In this document: piece by piece, positions 12,325 to 61,023 of the stretch
How the letters are laid out: every line of letters starts with the position of its first letter
How positions within the stretch are numbered: the first letter of the stretch is position 1
Assembly (NCBI GenBank): GCA_024232855.1
Contig: JAAEPH010000056.1
Coordinates: 1-61,023 of the forward strand
From: Gammaproteobacteria bacterium
Lineage (GTDB): Bacteria > Pseudomonadota > Gammaproteobacteria > GCA-001735895
Reading direction: 5' to 3'
DNA: 61,023 nt
Made by a program: the position numbers and the translations under genes
Notes under the pieces: model-generated
Told to the model about the DNA's origin: nothing
What the model saw: only the letters and a program-made list of their open reading frames with translations
Database searches by the model: none

Positions 12325-12401
<77 letters not shown>

Positions 12402-27202: not shown

Positions 27203-27287
27203 TGGTGCCGATGGCCGGACTCGAACCGGCACAGCTTTCGCCACTACCCCCTCAAGATAGCGTGTCTACCAATTCCACCACATCGGC
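27203..27287 (-). tRNA. leuU: tRNA-Leu (GAG)
   Basis: GCCGATGTGGTGGAATTGGTAGACACGCTATCTTGAGGGGGTAG...GGTTCGAGTCC...GGCACCA; long variable arm; follows secG. Confidence 0.97.
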
Positions 27288-39771: not shown

Positions 39772-39947
39772 TTGTCACAGCAGGTAGTTAAAAGAGGTTC
39801 TCGGTAGAGTAGGGGCCAGGCGAAACCTGGCCCCTACTCTACCGAGAACCTGTCCGGGAAGCATCCGCGCCTCTGCGCCTCCGCGAGAACCTTCCTGGTA
39901 AATGTCCGCGCCTCCGCGAGAACCTGCCCGGGAGCATCCGCGGTCTA
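39772..39947. mobile_element. Degenerate MITE/REP composite with group II intron DVI palindrome (core 39804-39842) and tandem CGAGAACC units
   Basis: 57-bp palindrome at 39795-39851; flanks resemble both ends of the element at 41589-41836. Confidence 0.8.
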
Positions 39948-41570: not shown

Positions 41571-41588
41571 ATCCTGCCTGTATGCGGG

Positions 41589-41836
41589 CTAACCCGCACA
41601 TCTCACCGATTTCCTGCTGCGGACGCTTCCTTGGAGGGGTTCTCGCAGAGGCGCGGAGAGCGCAGGGCGCGCGGAGGGTATTTTGCAGGGTGTGTGCCTG
41701 GGCATCTCTGACGCAGACTTCGATAACTTCTTTATCCCCCGCCCCCCCGGCGCTCACTGCGCTCTCCGCGTCTCTGCGAGAACCTTTACTGAAGTAGTCC
41801 CGCGTCGTGGACCTGCTGGTGACAAATGCGGGCTAG
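41589..41836. mobile_element. MITE (family A-type ends) carrying an intact inverted REP pair; empty intron target
   Basis: CTAA-CCCGCACATCTCACC...GGTGACAAATGCGGG-CTAG; 28-bp inverted arms at 41638-41665 and 41757-41784 (one mismatch). Confidence 0.8.
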
Positions 41837-41940
41837 ACATCGCTAACAGGATTTCCGACTATAACGTTCTGGTCCCAGGCCGGTGGCTAACCTGGAATGG
41901 CAAACCACTCCACATTCATCGCAGACTAGAGTTTCGGATT

Positions 41941-42507: not shown

Positions 42508-42527
42508 CCAAACATCGGGTAATTGAG

Positions 42528-42628
42528 GGTTCTCAGCTAAGGTTCTCGGTAGAGTAGGGGCCAGGTTTCGCCTGGCCCCTACTCTACCGCCTCTGCGAGA
42601 ACATTACCGGGGAAGCATCCGCGGGCTA
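42528..42628. mobile_element. Degenerate MITE/REP composite with second DVI palindrome (core 42549-42587)
   Basis: GGTTCTCG|GTAGAGTAGGGGCCAGG-TTTCG-CCTGGCCCCTACTCTAC|CGCCTCTGCGAGAAC. Confidence 0.8.
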
Positions 42629-43402
42629 ACGTCGCATGAAATCGAGCACCAGCTGACTGAATTCCTGCGGTTTTTCGGCGTGCAACCAGTGTCCCGCCGC
42701 GGCGATCGTAGCGATACTGGCGTTTTCGAAATGACGCTCGATGACTTCGATTCCGTTATCGTCGATGTAGTCGGAACTGGCGCCGCGAATGAACAATGTC
42801 GGCAATTTACCGAGCCAGTCCCGCGGCAATTCGTCGAAGCCGGTAAGCGCATCCATATCGCGCTGAATCACCCGCCAGTTGATACGCCAGCGCCAGGACG
42901 CTGATTCTCGCACCAGGTTTTGCAGTAGAAAGGCACGCAGCTGATCTTCGGGGATATTGGGACGCAAGGCATGATCGACCTGGGTACGCGACTCGAAGCT
43001 GTCGAGGTCGAGAGCGAGAATCGGCTCGATCAAATCATCGTAGTGGTGATAATAGGCAAGCGGTGCGATATCGGCGACCACCATTCGCGAAACCAGTCCG
43101 GGATATTGAATCGCCAGCGTCATCGCGACCTTGCCACCCATGCTGTGGCCGAGTACTCGACAATGGTTCAGACCCAACCGCTCCAGTAAGCGCGCCACGT
43201 CCTCGGCCATGGCCGCGTAACTCATTTCGTCCGCATGAAAAGACTGCCCGTGATTGCGCAGATCGATGGCGAACACCTCGTAGCTTTCCGCAAGACGGCG
43301 CAGCTGCGAGTGCCAGTTCCGGCTCGAACCGAACAAACCGTGCATGACGATCAGCGGAGATCCGCTACCCGCCTTGCTGTAGTACAGATCGGGCTCCGCC
43401 AT
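42626..43402 (-). CDS. Alpha/beta-fold esterase (YbfF-like)
   Basis: HGLFGS, DLRNHG, GHSMGG, GHWLHAE. Confidence 0.93.
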   Translation of the reverse strand: MAEPDLYYSKAGSGSPLIVMHGLFGSSRNWHSQLRRLAESYEVFAIDLRNHGQSFHADEMSYAAMAEDVARLLERLGLNHCRVLGHSMGGKVAMTLAIQYPGLVSRMVVADIAPLAYYHHYDDLIEPILALDLDSFESRTQVDHALRPNIPEDQLRAFLLQNLVRESASWRWRINWRVIQRDMDALTGFDELPRDWLGKLPTLFIRGASSDYIDDNGIEVIERHFENASIATIAAAGHWLHAEKPQEFSQLVLDFMRR

Positions 43403-49253: not shown

Positions 49254-49416
49254 CCTAGAAAACGCAATAGGGCGCGAAAAAGATGTGCAAGCGATTGATT
49301 TAGATAGCGTAATGAAAAAATGCGTGGTCACCTTATTGGTGATAAGCACTTTTTTCATATAGCTAAATGAATCAATCGCTTGTGCAGACTTTCGTGATCC
49401 TACTGCGTTTTCTAGG
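49254..49416. mobile_element. 163-bp fully palindromic AT-rich MITE with ATTAT duplication
   Basis: ATTAT-CCTAGAAAACGCAATAGG...CCTACTGCGTTTTCTAGG-ATTAT; arms pair over most of their length around the loop at 49333-49337. Confidence 0.8.
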
Positions 49417-49465
49417 ATTATTATTAATAACTCTATAAATATTTCATATCGGATAATCGGTACCG

Positions 49466-50506
49466 ATGAATAAATTGACCATCATCAAACCCGACGACTG
49501 GCATCTGCACTTACGCGACTCGCCGTACCTGGAAGCGGTCGTGCGCGACAGCGCTCGCCAGTTCGGGCGTGCGATCATCATGCCCAATCTGAATCCACCG
49601 GTACGCAGCTGTGCCGATGCGATGGCCTATCGCAAACGTATCATGGCCGCGCTCGCCGACGAAAGTGACTTCGAGCCGCTGATGACCCTGTACCTGACGG
49701 ATAACACCAGTGTCGAGGATATCCGCGCCGCCAGCAAATCCACCAGCATACACGGCGCCAAACTTTACCCCGCGGGCGCAACCACGAACTCCGATGCCGG
49801 GGTTACCGACCTGGCGAAACTCGCGCCCGTGTTCGAGGCGATGCAAGACTCCGGGCTGATGCTGCAGGTGCACGGTGAATCGACCGCGAGCGATGTGGAC
49901 GTATTCGATCGAGAGAAGGTCTTTATCGATAAAAGCCTGCAGCGTATTCGTGCGGACTACCCCGAACTACGCATCGTTTTTGAACATATCACGACGAAGG
50001 AAGCGGTCGACTTCGTGCGCGCCGGCGATGTTAATCTCGCTGCCACGATCACGCCCCATCACCTTTTGATCAATCGCAACGCGATTTTCCAGGGCGGCAT
50101 TCGGCCGCATCATTACTGCCTGCCGATCGTCAAACGCGAGCATCACCGACGCGCCCTGGTGGAGGCGGCTGTCAGCGGCGAGACGCGTTTCTTCAGTGGC
50201 ACCGACAGTGCGCCGCACAGCCGCGTCGCCAAGCAATCCGCCTGCGGCTGCGCCGGTATTTACTCGGCCCACAGCGCGCTCGAACTCTATGCCGAGGCCT
50301 TCGATGAACTCGGTGACTTTACCCATTTCGAATCCTTCGTGAGTCTCAATGGCGCCCATTTTTACCGGCTACCGCCAAACCGGGATTCGGTAACGCTACA
50401 GCGGCTTCAGTGGACTGTTCCGGACTCCTTGCCCTACCCCGAATCCTGCTTGATCCCGTTCCGCGCCGGGGAGACATTAAACTGGAAACTCATCCACGAT
50501 GACTAA
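49466..50506 (+). CDS. pyrC: Dihydroorotase (type II)
   Basis: PDDWHLHLRD, KLYPAGATTNS, GTDSAPH. Confidence 0.99.
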   Translation: MNKLTIIKPDDWHLHLRDSPYLEAVVRDSARQFGRAIIMPNLNPPVRSCADAMAYRKRIMAALADESDFEPLMTLYLTDNTSVEDIRAASKSTSIHGAKLYPAGATTNSDAGVTDLAKLAPVFEAMQDSGLMLQVHGESTASDVDVFDREKVFIDKSLQRIRADYPELRIVFEHITTKEAVDFVRAGDVNLAATITPHHLLINRNAIFQGGIRPHHYCLPIVKREHHRRALVEAAVSGETRFFSGTDSAPHSRVAKQSACGCAGIYSAHSALELYAEAFDELGDFTHFESFVSLNGAHFYRLPPNRDSVTLQRLQWTVPDSLPYPESCLIPFRAGETLNWKLIHDD

Positions 50507-50609
50507 CCCGCATATCTCACCGTTTTACGTCGCGATATGCACATGGATATGCAGTAGTAGAGCAATGCAGGAGCAATTGCCGAGGAAATCGGTGAGATAT
50601 GCGGGCTAA
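50503..50609. mobile_element. MITE family A, copy 2 (99 bp plus CTAA duplication)
   Basis: CTAA-CCCGCATATCTCACCG...CGGTGAGATATGCGGG-CTAA; perfect 16-bp terminal inverted repeats. Confidence 0.88.
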
Positions 50610-56307: not shown

Positions 56308-57219
56308 ATGCCTATGCGTCATTTTTTAAGCGTGCTGGATTTAAACAGCGACGAACACCGGTCATTGATCGCACATGCCATCGATGTCAAACAAAAACTC
56401 GGGCAGGGAATTTCGCACAACCCTCTGAGCGGCAAGTTGCTGGCCATGATTTTTGAAAAGTCATCGACGCGAACCCGGGTTTCCTTCGAGGCGGGAATGT
56501 ACCAGCTTGGCGGGCATGCCATGTTCATGTCGCCGCGCGACAGTCACCTGGGGCGCGGTGAACCCATCGAAGACAGCGCACGCGTTATATCGAGCATGGC
56601 GGACGGCATCCTCATACGCACCTTCGGGCATGATCGTATCGAAACCCTGGCGCAGCACTCCTGCGTGCCGGTCATCAACGGCCTCAGCGATCGGTTACAC
56701 CCCTGCCAGTTGCTGGCCGACATGCAGACCTGGTTCGAGCAGCGCGGCGATATCGCCGGCGCCAGCGTCGCCTGGATCGGCGACGGCAACAATATGTGCC
56801 ACTCCTACATCAATGCCGCGATACGTTTTGGTTTTGATCTCAGTATCGCCTGCCCGTCCGGCCACGAACCCGATGCCGGTCTGGTGCAAAGCGGCGGTCA
56901 TCGTATCAGCCTGCATGAATCGGCGTCGGACGCCGCCCGCGGCGCGGATCTGGTGGTCACGGATGTCTGGGCGAGCATGGGTCAGGAACAGGAACAGGAG
57001 CAGCGCCTGCAAACCTTCGCCGACTATCAGGTTAACCGGCAGGTCATGCAACAGGCCCATAACGACGCCCTGTTCATGCATTGCCTGCCCGCACACCGTG
57101 AAGAAGAAGTCACCACCGAAGTTCTCGAAAGCGCACAATCGGTAGTCTGGCAGGAAGCGGAAAATCGCCTGCATGCGCAGAAAGCGCTGCTCGAGTTTTT
57201 GATCGCCGGAGGGCTTTAA
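56308..57219 (+). CDS. argF: Ornithine carbamoyltransferase
   Basis: SSTRTR, HPCQ, WASMG, HCLP. Confidence 0.98.
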
Positions 57220-57220
57220 C

Positions 57221-57278
57221 CCTAAAATCCTCAGTTGAACCTACTGCGGTCGTCTACGATTCAACTGAGGATTTTAGG
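57221..57278. mobile_element. 58-bp minimal MITE with TTAAC duplication
   Basis: TTAAC-CCTAAAATCCTCAGTTGAA-N20-TTCAACTGAGGATTTTAGG-TTAAC; perfect 19-bp terminal inverted repeats. Confidence 0.8.
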
Positions 57279-58517: not shown

Positions 58518-58547
58518 ACCCCTGTGTGGTCTATATTAGTTTATTGA

Positions 58548-58575
58548 CCCGGCGACAATATATATTGTCGCCGGG
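58548..58575. promoter_or_regulatory. Perfect 28-bp palindrome in divergent promoter region
   Basis: CCCGGCGACAATAT|ATATTGTCGCCGGG. Confidence 0.55.
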
Positions 58576-58626
58576 CCAGAACGATTATTATATAGTGCGT
58601 TTCGAGTTTAGCGGACAACGGCAGAA

Positions 58627-59937
58627 ATGAGCAATACGCAGGACCATGTACGGTGGTTTCGGGATGCGGCGCCTTATATAAAGGCGCATCGCAAGAAAAC
58701 CTTTGTCGTCATGATTTCGGACGAGGTGATTTACTCGGAGCGATTCATCGGCCTGGTGCACGATATTGCGCTGCTCAACCATCTCGGTATCAAGCTTGTT
58801 ATTCTGCACGGCAGCCGCAGCAGCATCGATTCCCATCTCGCCAGCAATAACCTGGAAGCGCATTATCATCAGAACATACGCATTACCGATATCGAATCGC
58901 TGCCCTACGTGGTGCAGGCGATCAATGCCGTCAAAACCCACTTAGAGTCGCAACTTTCCACGGGCCTGCCAAATACACCGATGTCCGGTTCGGAAATAGC
59001 CCTGGCCAGCGGCAATTTTGTAACCGGCATGCCGCTCGGTGTCATCGACGGCGTCGACATGCAGCATTCCGGCAAAGTACGCTATATCAGGCACGAGGCG
59101 ATAAAGGAATTGCTCGATCTCAACCACGTGGTGCTGTTGTCAAACCTGGGGTACTCTCGCACCGGCGAAGTTTTCAATTTACCGACCGAGGAACTGGCCG
59201 GGGAGGTCGCGCGCGCGCTCAGGGCCGACAAGCTGATTTACATCCATGAAGGCGCGCGCAACGGCGAAAAACAGGCCTCTACCCTGTCGACCGCCGACTG
59301 CGAGGCATTGCTGCAACAGCCGGACACGAGCGATGACCTGAAAAGCCTTTTGCACCAGGCAAAGCTGGCGATTCAGGCGCAGGTCAAACGGGTCCACCTC
59401 ATCGATCAGCAGGTCGATGGCGGTTTGCTGCTGGAACTGTTTACCCGTGACGGCTATGGAACCATGATCACGAACCTGTTTTACGAGGGTAACAGGCCGG
59501 CCAGCATAGAGGATATCGGCGGCATCGTCAGCCTCATAGAGCCGCTCGAAAACAGCGGTGTACTGGTGGCCAGATCACGCGAACAAATGGAACTGCAAAT
59601 CAGGCATTTCCAGGTTATCGAAAAAGACGGCATGATTATCGCCTGCATCGCCTGCATTCCCGATGAAGAAGCAAAGGTTGCCGAAATTGCCTGCCTGGCG
59701 GTACACCAGGGCTATCAGCGCACCGGGTTGGCCAGCCAATTACTGCAAATCGCAGAGGATCGGGCGCTGAAACAGGGCGTGAATCGACTTTATACCCTGA
59801 CGACTCGCACCTCGCACTGGTTTATCGAACACGGTTTCAATGAAGACCGTAACTTCGAGATACCGGCCGCCAAACGCGGTAGCTACAACCCCAAACGAGG
59901 TTCGAAGATACTCTTGAAGTCACTAAATGTCTTATGA
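58627..59937 (+). CDS. argA: Amino-acid N-acetyltransferase (N-acetylglutamate synthase)
   Basis: WFRDAAPYIKAHR, LLELFTRDG, C-terminal GNAT domain (LTTRTSHWF, YNPKRGSK). Confidence 0.97.
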   Translation: MSNTQDHVRWFRDAAPYIKAHRKKTFVVMISDEVIYSERFIGLVHDIALLNHLGIKLVILHGSRSSIDSHLASNNLEAHYHQNIRITDIESLPYVVQAINAVKTHLESQLSTGLPNTPMSGSEIALASGNFVTGMPLGVIDGVDMQHSGKVRYIRHEAIKELLDLNHVVLLSNLGYSRTGEVFNLPTEELAGEVARALRADKLIYIHEGARNGEKQASTLSTADCEALLQQPDTSDDLKSLLHQAKLAIQAQVKRVHLIDQQVDGGLLLELFTRDGYGTMITNLFYEGNRPASIEDIGGIVSLIEPLENSGVLVARSREQMELQIRHFQVIEKDGMIIACIACIPDEEAKVAEIACLAVHQGYQRTGLASQLLQIAEDRALKQGVNRLYTLTTRTSHWFIEHGFNEDRNFEIPAAKRGSYNPKRGSKILLKSLNVL

Positions 59938-60835
59938 TCTGACCAATTACCTGGTAATAGGCGTCTCCTCGCGCGCACTGTTCGACCTCAGTCTCGAGAA
60001 CGAAATCTACGAGAATGAAGGCCTGGAGGCCTACTGCCAGTATCAGCTTGAGCATGAAAACGACGTTCTCAAACCCGGCACCGGGTTCGCCCTGATCGAG
60101 GCAATGCTCGCCATCAACAACATCGATCCCGGGGTACGCCGCACTGAGGTCGTCATTATTTCTCGAAACTCGGCAGACACCAGTTTGCGCATTTCCAATT
60201 CGATCGACGATCACAAGCTCGATATTACGCGCGCCGCCTTCACCGGTGGGGAACCGGTTGCCAAGTACCTGAATGCCTTTGAGGTCGACCTCTTTCTATC
60301 CGCGACCGAGGAGGATGTTCAGGCGGCGGTGGAGTCGGATGTTGCGGCTGGCCTGATCTACGACGGCCCCAGCCGCGACCGAAGCGATCCGTTACAACAG
60401 ATCAGAATTGCCTTCGACGGCGATGCGGTACTTTTTTCCAAGGAGTCGGAAATGATTTACCAGCAACAGGGGCTCGAGGCTTTTATCGACCACGAGCAAA
60501 AAAACGCCCAGAAGCCGTTACCCGAAGGCCCCTTCGCAAAACTGCTGAAGACGCTGTCATTTCTACAATTCGACCTCAACAGCAGCAACCGGCAATCCAG
60601 TCCGCCCATCCGTACCGCGCTGGTCACCGCCCGCAACAGCCCCGCTCACGAGCGGGTCATCCGCACCCTGCGCACCTGGAAGGTGCGCATCGATGAAACC
60701 TTTTTTCTCGGCGGCGTTCCCAAGCACAAGATCCTTGAGTCTTTCTCGCCGCATATCTTTTTCGATGATCAACATCAACATTGCGAAGGGGCATCCCGGG
60801 TAGTGCCGACGGCGCGCGTGCCGCACAAGGACTAG
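59927..60835 (+). CDS. 5'-nucleotidase (cN-I-like HAD family)
   Basis: LVIGVSSRALF, RIAFDGDAVLF, ALVTARN, PHIFFDDQ. Confidence 0.93.
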   Translation: MSYDLTNYLVIGVSSRALFDLSLENEIYENEGLEAYCQYQLEHENDVLKPGTGFALIEAMLAINNIDPGVRRTEVVIISRNSADTSLRISNSIDDHKLDITRAAFTGGEPVAKYLNAFEVDLFLSATEEDVQAAVESDVAAGLIYDGPSRDRSDPLQQIRIAFDGDAVLFSKESEMIYQQQGLEAFIDHEQKNAQKPLPEGPFAKLLKTLSFLQFDLNSSNRQSSPPIRTALVTARNSPAHERVIRTLRTWKVRIDETFFLGGVPKHKILESFSPHIFFDDQHQHCEGASRVVPTARVPHKD

Positions 60836-60891
60836 CCCCGCATTTCTCACCACCGGATCGACGGCGCGGGACTACTCAATAAAGGTTCTCG
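60832..60891. mobile_element. End of a MITE/REP composite forming the intron 3' exon
   Basis: Reverse complement closely matches 41777-41836; starts at the CTAG containing the nucleotidase stop. Confidence 0.8.
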
Positions 60892-61023
60892 GTAGAGTAG
60901 GGGCCAGGCGAAACCTGGCCCCCCTCGTCAAACGCAGCATGCGGCTTTCCCGCACTACGCTTTCCTGCTGCCTTCACAATAGAGCTATCGCAAGGGAATT
61001 TAGCAGTCAGAGCTGCAACAAGC
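60892..61023 (-). mobile_element. Group II intron 3' end (domains V and VI); remainder outside the window
   Basis: DV AAGCGTAGTGCGGGAAAGCCGCATGCTGCGTTT has the AGC triad, GAAA loop and 2-nt bulge. DVI GAGGGGGGCCAGG-TTTCG-CCTGGCCCCT-A-CTC has the bulged A and ends in AC. Confidence 0.92.

Follow-up and report, generated by a model that had tools for sequence, protein, structure and literature searches.

A group II intron with its junctions in a high-copy inverted repeat pair: probable homing into the repeat arms and collapse of double insertions to a 39-nt hairpin

The persistence of group II introns in bacteria is commonly ascribed to insertion at places where little harm results. The locus analyzed here raises the question of what such a landing site may look like and what becomes of it when each element offers it twice. 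A 248-nt element in a gammaproteobacterial contig carries two inverted arms, one of which continues into sequence similar to the 3' exon of a group II intron at the end of the same contig, and two further loci of this contig carry a palindrome composed of intron ends. According to the reading that we consider probable, the intron retrohomes to CTCTG/CG in the arms of the repeat (here and below, the slash in a motif marks the insertion point) and head-to-head double insertions collapse to a 39-nt hairpin. The window, that is the whole stretch of DNA analyzed (61,023 nt), represents an entire contig and is part of a 550-contig genome bin.

The focal element and the repeat family

The focal copy is empty and combines a TIR element with an inverted repeat pair in its interior. 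The features of the window were:

41589-41836, no strand assigned: composite element, empty copy, 248 nt, TIR element with the inverted repeat pair inside
41638-41678, minus strand: left arm; empty putative minus-strand homing site between 41645 and 41646, where the plus strand reads GGTTCTCG/CAGAGG
41744-41784, plus strand: right arm; empty putative homing site TCTCTG/CGAGAACC between 41776 and 41777
60832-61023, minus strand: intron-bearing copy, with only the final 132 nt of the intron on the contig
60832-60891, minus strand: 3' exon of the intron, consisting of outer wing and TIR of another element copy, 85% identical over 61 nt to 41777-41836
60892-61023, minus strand: group II intron 3' end with domains V and VI, last 132 nt, truncated by the contig end
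39796-39850, no strand assigned: scar 1, composed of GGTTCTCG, a 39-nt perfect palindrome (39804-39842) and CGAGAACC
42541-42602, no strand assigned: scar 2, composed of GGTTCTCG, the same 39-nt palindrome (42549-42587) and CGCCTCTGCGAGAAC
39851-39935, plus strand: array of two extra right-arm fragments with empty CCTCCG/CGAGAACC sites between 39883 and 39884 and between 39916 and 39917
50503-50609, no strand assigned: TIR element copy without repeat pair, 107 nt

The TIRs of the focal element (CTAACCCGCACATCTCACC at 41589-41607 and its inverted partner at 41818-41836) agreed at 15 of 19 positions as judged by eye. On both sides the element ends read CTAA, CTAG or TTAG, which could be a target-site duplication or a piece of the TIR. 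The arms are 41 nt long, separated by a 65-nt gap and 88% complementary. Their outer 28 nt (GGTTCTCGCAGAGGCGCGGAGAGCGCAG and CTGCGCTCTCCGCGTCTCTGCGAGAACC) correspond to the inverted arms described in an earlier sequence-only reading of the window, and the match it reported between the 60 nt right of the insertion point and positions 60891-60832 was recovered as well. Both arms are composed of 8-nt YCTCYGCG units; the right one has the sequence CTGCGCTCTCCG CGTCTCTG CGAGAACC and a second register 8 nt upstream (CTCTCCG/CGTCTCTG). As single-stranded DNA the 248 nt fold with -66.3 kcal/mol (z = -6.17), and none of 200 shuffled sequences was as stable.

The focal element is located between genes for a Ser/Thr kinase (minus strand) and a cobalamin adenosyltransferase (plus strand). 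The remaining copies of the window are likewise intergenic, and the 3' exon at 60832-60891 overlaps the stop codon of an ORF (59927-60835). Contigs of related strains lacked the stretches 41587-41908 and 42510-42632 (the region of scar 2), which fits insertion polymorphism, though the boundaries are inexact and the related-strain contigs break at repeat arms. All four family members that had been listed for the window are real, namely one empty copy, one with an intron and two scars, whereas the two empty right-arm sites adjoining scar 1 and the armless TIR copy at 50503-50609 were absent from that account.

Genome-wide, the site motif YCTCYG/CGARAAYC was found 122 times, compared with 0.6 occurrences expected from base composition, and formed 32 exact convergent pairs. 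With a profile of the repeat core 105 loci were identified, and 77 of these are near full length. In a comparison with 60 further genomes of the genus, the motif was found 11 times in one and 0-3 times in each of the others, as against 121 times here. The 19-nt TIR end gave 289 matches with at most 3 substitutions and none for the reversed control. These include 76 convergent pairs in size classes of about 108, 168, 184, 214 and 230-300 nt, an arrangement of TIRs as in MITEs, and the focal element is one of them. Since the 107-nt copy of the window is armless and only 6 of the 76 TIR pairs, the focal one included, enclose two arms, the TIR element is a tier of its own, separable from the repeat pair and sometimes carrying it.

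The sequence-only reading had proposed that the MITE spreads the sites, and this was shown only in part. Some pairs are indeed found inside the TIR element, and 30 of the 77 near-full pairs kept a recognisable element end within 90 nt, compared with 32 of 2000 random places (~24-fold enrichment); however, both end motifs were present in 7 pairs, one in 23 and none in 47. Alternatively, the pairs may spread themselves in a REPIN-like manner via a Y1/RAYT transposase, with the TIR miniature element as an occasional carrier rather than the vehicle, which would leave two working tiers and an incidental third. Besides the 47 pairs without end motif and the few TIR pairs that hold two arms, this is favored by tandem arrays of arms (window 39851-39935, C48 and L013), by repeat pairs flanked by a second type of sequence (C334, C206 and the end of C515), and by a Y1 gene on C28 followed by a pair 30-50 nt on. 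The pairs also show the REP/REPIN layout of inverted units with a spacer in high copy number and extragenic position (105 loci, window copies between genes). On the other hand, the arms are tandem 8-nt units and not self-palindromic REPs, the end motifs are clearly enriched, the short wings resemble deletion forms of the long TIR wing, and only one of four Y1 transposase-like genes has a repeat pair just downstream (none upstream). We regard autonomous spread of the pairs as a serious possibility, albeit on the less likely side.

The Y1 gene mentioned above (C28:31990-32700) codes for a 232-aa, IS200-like transposase-like protein with HVH motif and C-terminal extension, and the repeat pair that follows within about 50 nt is enclosed by TIR wings. 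This gene is a candidate for the RAYT of the repeat family.

Other small repeats were present as well. Small TIR elements at window 49254-49420 and 57217-57278 have the ends CCTAGAAAACGCAGTA... and CCTAAAATCCTCAGTTGAA..., which recur at many contig breaks, each after (A/T)A(A/T)CCTA; these recurrences point to a minimum of two additional insertion-sequence families with miniature derivatives of their own. A perfect palindrome (GACCCGGCGACAATATATATTGTCGCCGGGCC) spans 58525-58576 and, given a summed contig depth of about 930 in the bin holding it against a baseline of about 40 (source-sample run), is another high-copy hairpin repeat. Furthermore, a 105-nt repeat ending in CTAG occurs in 64 copies at ≥95% identity, 50 of them within 60 nt of a contig end. 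It was located at contig ends, at C334:10186-10290 and internally, e.g. at C272:3318-3423 and C122:4254-4359. It apparently represents the end of a larger insertion sequence, missing from the assembly, that is present in solo copies too, and is probably the main cause of the fragmentation into 550 contigs, much of which is explained by nested repeats. The window also contains two tRNA genes on the minus strand, at 12328-12401 (62.5 bits) and at 27206-27287 (51.3 bits), the latter with a long variable arm.

The intron and its target site

Positions 60892-60964 (minus strand) matched the Rfam model RF00029 for domains V-VI with 40.1 bits at a gathering score of 40, and the model was above threshold at 7 places genome-wide. 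Elsewhere in the genome the 132-nt intron end was found with 100% identity on C536, C49 and C32, with 99.2% on C40 and with 98.5% on C6; C515 retains just the last 87 nt. The 5' end (GTGTGTCAGG...) was present on C174, C465 and C295, and GTGTG, in agreement with the GUGYG start of group II introns, was found at three junctions and one remnant.

BLAST with a full-length relative detected end fragments alone in the genome bin, in which the intron body is absent; the ORF is represented by one fragment on C174. With a 31-nt pattern taken from the 5' part, four contigs from metagenomes and one from a genome were recovered. Two metagenome contigs (L013 and L015) carry a complete intron of 2012 nt, identical in both, with 96% identity to this genome in the 5' part and 92% in the 3' part. 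Positions 60892-61023 are 92% identical to its positions 1880-2012. Recovery of the full intron, a step suggested by the sequence-only reading, was thus achieved with the metagenome relative but not within this bin. The protein of L015 has 457 aa, a TIGR04416 score of 377 bits (cut-off 300), RVT_1 and GIIM domains and a YADD motif, and is devoid of an endonuclease domain. Protein and domains II-IV were read from this 92-96% identical relative and not from the copy of this genome. Judged by the RF00029 copies, the GTGTG start, the full-length relative and the RT-maturase, the intron of this genome is genuine.

Searches in other genomes of the genus and class gave few relatives. The 395-nt 5' part had no real match in 40 other genomes of the same genus or class. 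The intron junction pattern gave two single matches in 60 other genomes of the same genus, both chance on reading, and no intron junction. By a protein search of 400 genomes of the same class an intron of 48% identity was found in one genome only. Its sites (…CTGTCC/GTATG…CTAC/CCG) are not evidently in palindromic repeats, and it was set aside as uninformative about the close clade. Many proteins of 75-91% identity were detected as well. A variant of 86% identity, found on the contigs L012 and L014, resides in a different palindromic repeat with 9-nt arm units. Its host repeat (L012:1405-1700 and L014:1-260) reads GGCCACGGAATCCACGGAA ... TTCCGTGGATTCCG/TGGATTCCGTGGCC, and the intron lies exactly between two tandem 9-nt units, mimicking a target duplication.

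Fragments of at least two or three unrelated group II introns were also noted (C231:3-983, C15:16308-16973, C345:7-138 and the starts of C186, C93 and C59), so that the genome hosts several intron lineages. The C231 fragment reached 311 bits with TIGR04416, the C15 copy has a gap inside the RT domain, and three sub-threshold domain V matches were present in the genome.

In the domain V loop (GAAAN) only the fifth base varied among the three variants (GAAAG, GAAAC and GAAAA), while the GCGG-CCGC stem was invariant. With a five-nt domain V loop, an RNA of 638 nt without ORF and a protein lacking an endonuclease domain, the intron shows the features of IIE/IIF introns, and we provisionally class it as IIE/IIF-like, by RNA features and protein domains rather than by protein phylogeny.

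In total, 18 intron/3'-exon junction sides were obtained by genome-wide pattern search. All of them lay within the repeat and began with CG, with CGARAAYC at the start or up to 17 nt in (one mismatch in one case). Matching of the wings by short BLAST recognised 13 of the 18 junction flanks; the other five have short or divergent wings with the arm motif at the start or near it. The four 5' exons that could be recovered in this genome (C174, C465, C295 and C194) all end in CTCTG and the two of the metagenome contigs L013 and L015 in CTCCG. The uniform CTCTG is weak evidence when taken alone, as empty sites carry CTCTG in 64 and CTCCG in 58 of 122 cases (p ~0.08). The sequence-only reading had named 5' exons with other endings, or a majority of intron copies outside the repeat, as observations that would contradict it; neither was encountered, and its overall interpretation largely holds. 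At C40, C194 and window 42588 the insertion is located 8-17 nt deeper, one or two registers in, at another CTCYG/CG unit, as would be expected if any such unit can serve.

The Rfam D1-D4 model RF02005, which reached 48 bits compared with a gathering score of 49, aligned a hairpin of the intron as the EBS1 stem-loop. Loops and exons of the three variants were:

This genome (C174): EBS1 loop CAGAGA; 5' exon TCTCTG or CCTCTG
L013 and L015: EBS1 loop CGGAGA; 5' exon CCTCCG
L012 and L014: EBS1 loop CGGAAT; 5' exon ATTCCG, in the different palindromic repeat

Each loop matches the exon of its own variant, which amounts to two compensatory changes and indicates EBS1-IBS1 pairing. The complementarity that had been predicted was therefore found in the aligned EBS1 stem-loop and covaries with the exon. 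The loop was assigned by the Rfam alignment and, for this genome, read from a single, internally deleted copy (C174). Minimum free energy folds of 37-nt EBS1 segments gave three different, mutually inconsistent structures and were set aside. Homing at YCTCYG/C, as originally proposed, agrees with the CTCTG sites, but CAGAG of this genome pairs fully only with CTCTG and would form an A-C mismatch on CTCCG, the site used by the CGGAG variant elsewhere.

An internal loop adjacent to EBS1 has the sequence AACGCAA in combination with a 3' exon beginning with C and GACACAA with one beginning with T, although other loop bases differ too. The G of this loop is a tentative candidate for EBS3, for which a G had been predicted; it is replaced by A where the 3' exon begins with T and not with C. 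Comparison by eye of the loops upstream of EBS1 with the exons revealed no covarying EBS2-IBS2 pairing.

Origin of the 39-nt scars

The identical palindrome was found at five loci, i.e. at 39804-39842 and 42549-42587 of the window and on C312, C64 and C61. A scar consists of GGTTCTCG, GTAGAGTAGGGGCCAGG, a 5-nt loop and CCTGGCCCCTACTCTAC, followed by CGAGAAYC (in scar 2 by CGCCTCTGCGAGAAC). In its right half, the intron's final 17 nt run into the 3' exon; the left half reproduces an intron/3'-exon junction exactly, in reverse-complement orientation. Scar 1 matches the terminal 31 nt of the intron with 100% identity, and the pattern search detected its two junction sides. Nothing is left of the inner repeat and the spacer between the two homing sites. 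This anatomy calls for one intron/exon junction on each strand and thus for one insertion in each arm. Over 50 nt the scar flanks are mutually unlike (best identity 0.60, median 0.36), so that they represent five independent events rather than copies of one scarred element. Scar 2 is asymmetric, with the outer register on the left and the right-hand insertion 8 nt further in.

We consider the scars best read as the result of inverted double insertions with subsequent deletion across the stems of domain VI. In the proposed course of events, an intron of ~2.0 kb whose RT-maturase lacks an endonuclease domain would retrohome into CTCTG/CG, a motif that recurs with an 8-nt period along the arms of the highly repeated inverted-repeat pair. 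The EBS1 loop CAGAGA would pair through 5-6 nt with the terminal bases of the 5' exon, and the candidate EBS3 G would read C, the first base of the 3' exon. Some of the repeat pairs would ride inside the TIR-bounded miniature element, so that intron, repeat pair and TIR element would be nested at three levels. With one site per strand in each pair, two introns could insert head to head and form a palindrome of ~4 kb. This would be lost by deletion between 9-nt direct repeats (GGGGCCAGG and CCTGGCCCC) that the self-complementary domain VI stems supply near the outer ends of the palindrome. The remnant would be the 39-nt hairpin flanked by GGTTCTCG and CGAGAACC, with the homing site gone.

Resolution of double occupancy by deletion had already been suggested from the window alone. 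The scar anatomy fits at five loci; the doubly occupied state and the deletion, however, are deduced from the scars themselves. No undeleted double insertion was encountered, but as contigs were cut off at 500 nt, the central piece of a doubly occupied element would fall below this limit, so that a double insertion could not appear in this fragmented assembly. A rough count gives five doubles among about a dozen ever-occupied loci out of 105, which looks like more than chance placement would yield, but singles are under-counted by the assembly and we base no conclusion on the count.

Further derivatives show that the intron is prone to deletion at microhomologies. The copy on C174 lacks positions 270-920 and is joined at ATCCGTGA, C194 carries a 32-nt remnant joined at CAGGTT, and C515 is the truncated end mentioned above. 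At the C334-C6 locus about 220 nt of the 3' part are left, abutted at a TTAG by the 105-nt repeat described above.

A one-step origin of the scars from a single insertion was considered as well. Here the nascent strand, in reverse transcription or replication, would copy domain VI, snap back and copy itself, and the perfect 9-bp hairpin of domain VI, which could prime such synthesis, as well as the same end point in all five scars would agree with it. Snap-back would, however, yield a second, inverted copy of the 3' exon with its wing, while each scar is flanked by two different wing types (a long and a short wing in scar 1; only 0.43 identity between the sides of the C64 scar), and the two registers of scar 2 are impossible for a symmetric copy. 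Thus, we disfavor this origin as improbable. It is still less probable that the palindrome is an independent small hairpin repeat which the 3' end of the intron merely resembles or has captured. A perfect hairpin in intergenic DNA is certainly like many small bacterial repeats, but the identity to the intron's own terminus is 31 of 31 nt, including the Rfam-aligned branch-site region and the 3' splice site, and all copies are located exactly at homing-site boundaries. Moreover, the relatives have lineage-specific versions of domain VI (GGGGCCAGGGTTCGCCTGGCCTC in L015 and GGGGACCAAGG... in L012), which makes the hairpin an ancestral part of the intron. Finally, an assembly artefact by mis-joining of contigs at repeats, as the 550 contigs breaking at repeats and the four of seven 3' junctions exactly 132 nt from a contig end might suggest, is hardly credible, since the scars and the junctions of C194, C515, C40 and C6 are inside contigs with unique sequence on either side, two metagenome contigs of other data sets hold the complete intron between the same half-sites, and contigs of the source sample match the window through 60908.

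Double insertion followed by deletion is therefore the origin that we retain. The junctions, the EBS1-IBS1 covariation and the anatomy of the scars can be read directly from the sequences; anatomy and site recognition are well supported and the origin of the scars reasonably so, by inference. Among one another the intron ends share at least 98.5% identity, whereas the repeat copies share 69-81% with the focal copy; the invasion is thus recent relative to the repeat. Near-identical intron copies at different sites are the sole indirect sign of activity, and the intron may still be active; this, as well as which insertion came first and by what mechanism the deletion proceeded, we infer from sequence.

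Implications and relation to known systems

To our knowledge, a sequence footprint of past insertion is not usually expected of group II introns. The 39-nt scars would be such a footprint and would allow the history of an intron to be counted from genomes alone; they also suggest that copy number is limited by the instability of palindromes. Three target strategies are described for group II introns in the available part of a review, namely specific homing sites, terminators and attC sites (PMC4424553). In the genome analyzed here the homing site would be embedded in a high-copy non-coding palindromic repeat with about 120 intact targets in one genome, and the EBS1 of a close relative is re-aimed at a different repeat family. 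Homing into repeats would explain how the intron multiplied without damage to genes.

Taking these points together, an endonuclease-less IIE/IIF-like clade may specialise on palindromic repeats of its hosts and retune EBS1 to the arm motif of each host. Paired inverted sites would make the invasion self-limiting, as a second, head-to-head insertion would lead to palindrome-driven deletion of both introns and of the homing sites. The domain VI hairpin left behind would protect the locus from re-invasion and serve as a countable fossil of retrohoming. We see the chances of this joint proposal as close to balanced, with a slight lean against it.

Introns that home into repeated mobile DNA are already known, i.e. 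RmInt1, IIC introns at terminators or attC sites and a REP-associated intron of P. putida. The open-access papers that we searched contained no description of an intron with every junction inside a pair of inverted repeats, or of double insertions that had left palindromic remnants. The comparisons below refer to the available sections of the cited papers.

The closest agreement in RNA features is with the IIE/IIF introns. The Ge.ur.I1-1 paper describes these with a five-nt domain V loop, 450-700 nt without ORF, a range that includes the 638 nt found here, and no endonuclease domain (Nagy et al. 2013, PMC3753933). [quoted passage not shown] In contrast, a palindromic-repeat target and scars, both present here, are not mentioned in the sections available to us (PMC3753933), and no convincing EBS2-IBS2 pairing was found in our intron.

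Targets of the IIC introns are intrinsic terminators, behind which they insert, and integron attC sites (Zimmerly & Semper 2015, PMC4424553). A shortened EBS1 and the lack of EBS2 are further traits of this group. IIC introns share with our intron the endonuclease-less protein and a target DNA that can form a hairpin (PMC4424553), and the solved structures nearest to the intron protein are IIC reverse transcriptases (GsI-IIC RT, E = 7e-57). However, the insertion analyzed here is inside the 3' arm, at least 8 nt before its end, and not past the stem, the site is chosen by 5-6 bp of EBS1 pairing that covary with the exon, and the RNA without ORF has 638 nt compared with about 410 nt for IIC (PMC3753933). 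Membership in group IIC was rejected on these grounds.

RmInt1 of Sinorhizobium meliloti homes into the repeated insertion sequence ISRm2011-2 and, like our intron, combines the lack of an endonuclease domain with a homing site in a repeated mobile element (PMC1802570). In both cases the spread of the host element would multiply the targets of the intron. Here, however, the host is a non-coding inverted repeat with two inverted sites per element, which makes head-to-head double insertion and palindromic remnants possible.

REP sequences are targeted by insertion sequences (Tobes & Pareja 2006, PMC1525189; ISPpu9 preprint), and a group II intron of Pseudomonas putida KT2440 is REP-associated in two of nine copies (PMC1525189). 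The likeness consists in a high-copy extragenic palindromic repeat that serves as a safe landing site (PMC1525189). The differences are that here every recoverable junction lies in the repeat and that recognition would be achieved by RNA-DNA pairing and not by a transposase or a bridge RNA.

The scars finally resemble the products of nearly precise excision of Tn10, in which a deletion between short direct repeats within long inverted repeats leaves a small palindromic remnant. Here the inverted repeats would be two independent intron insertions, with the direct repeats derived from the domain VI stem.
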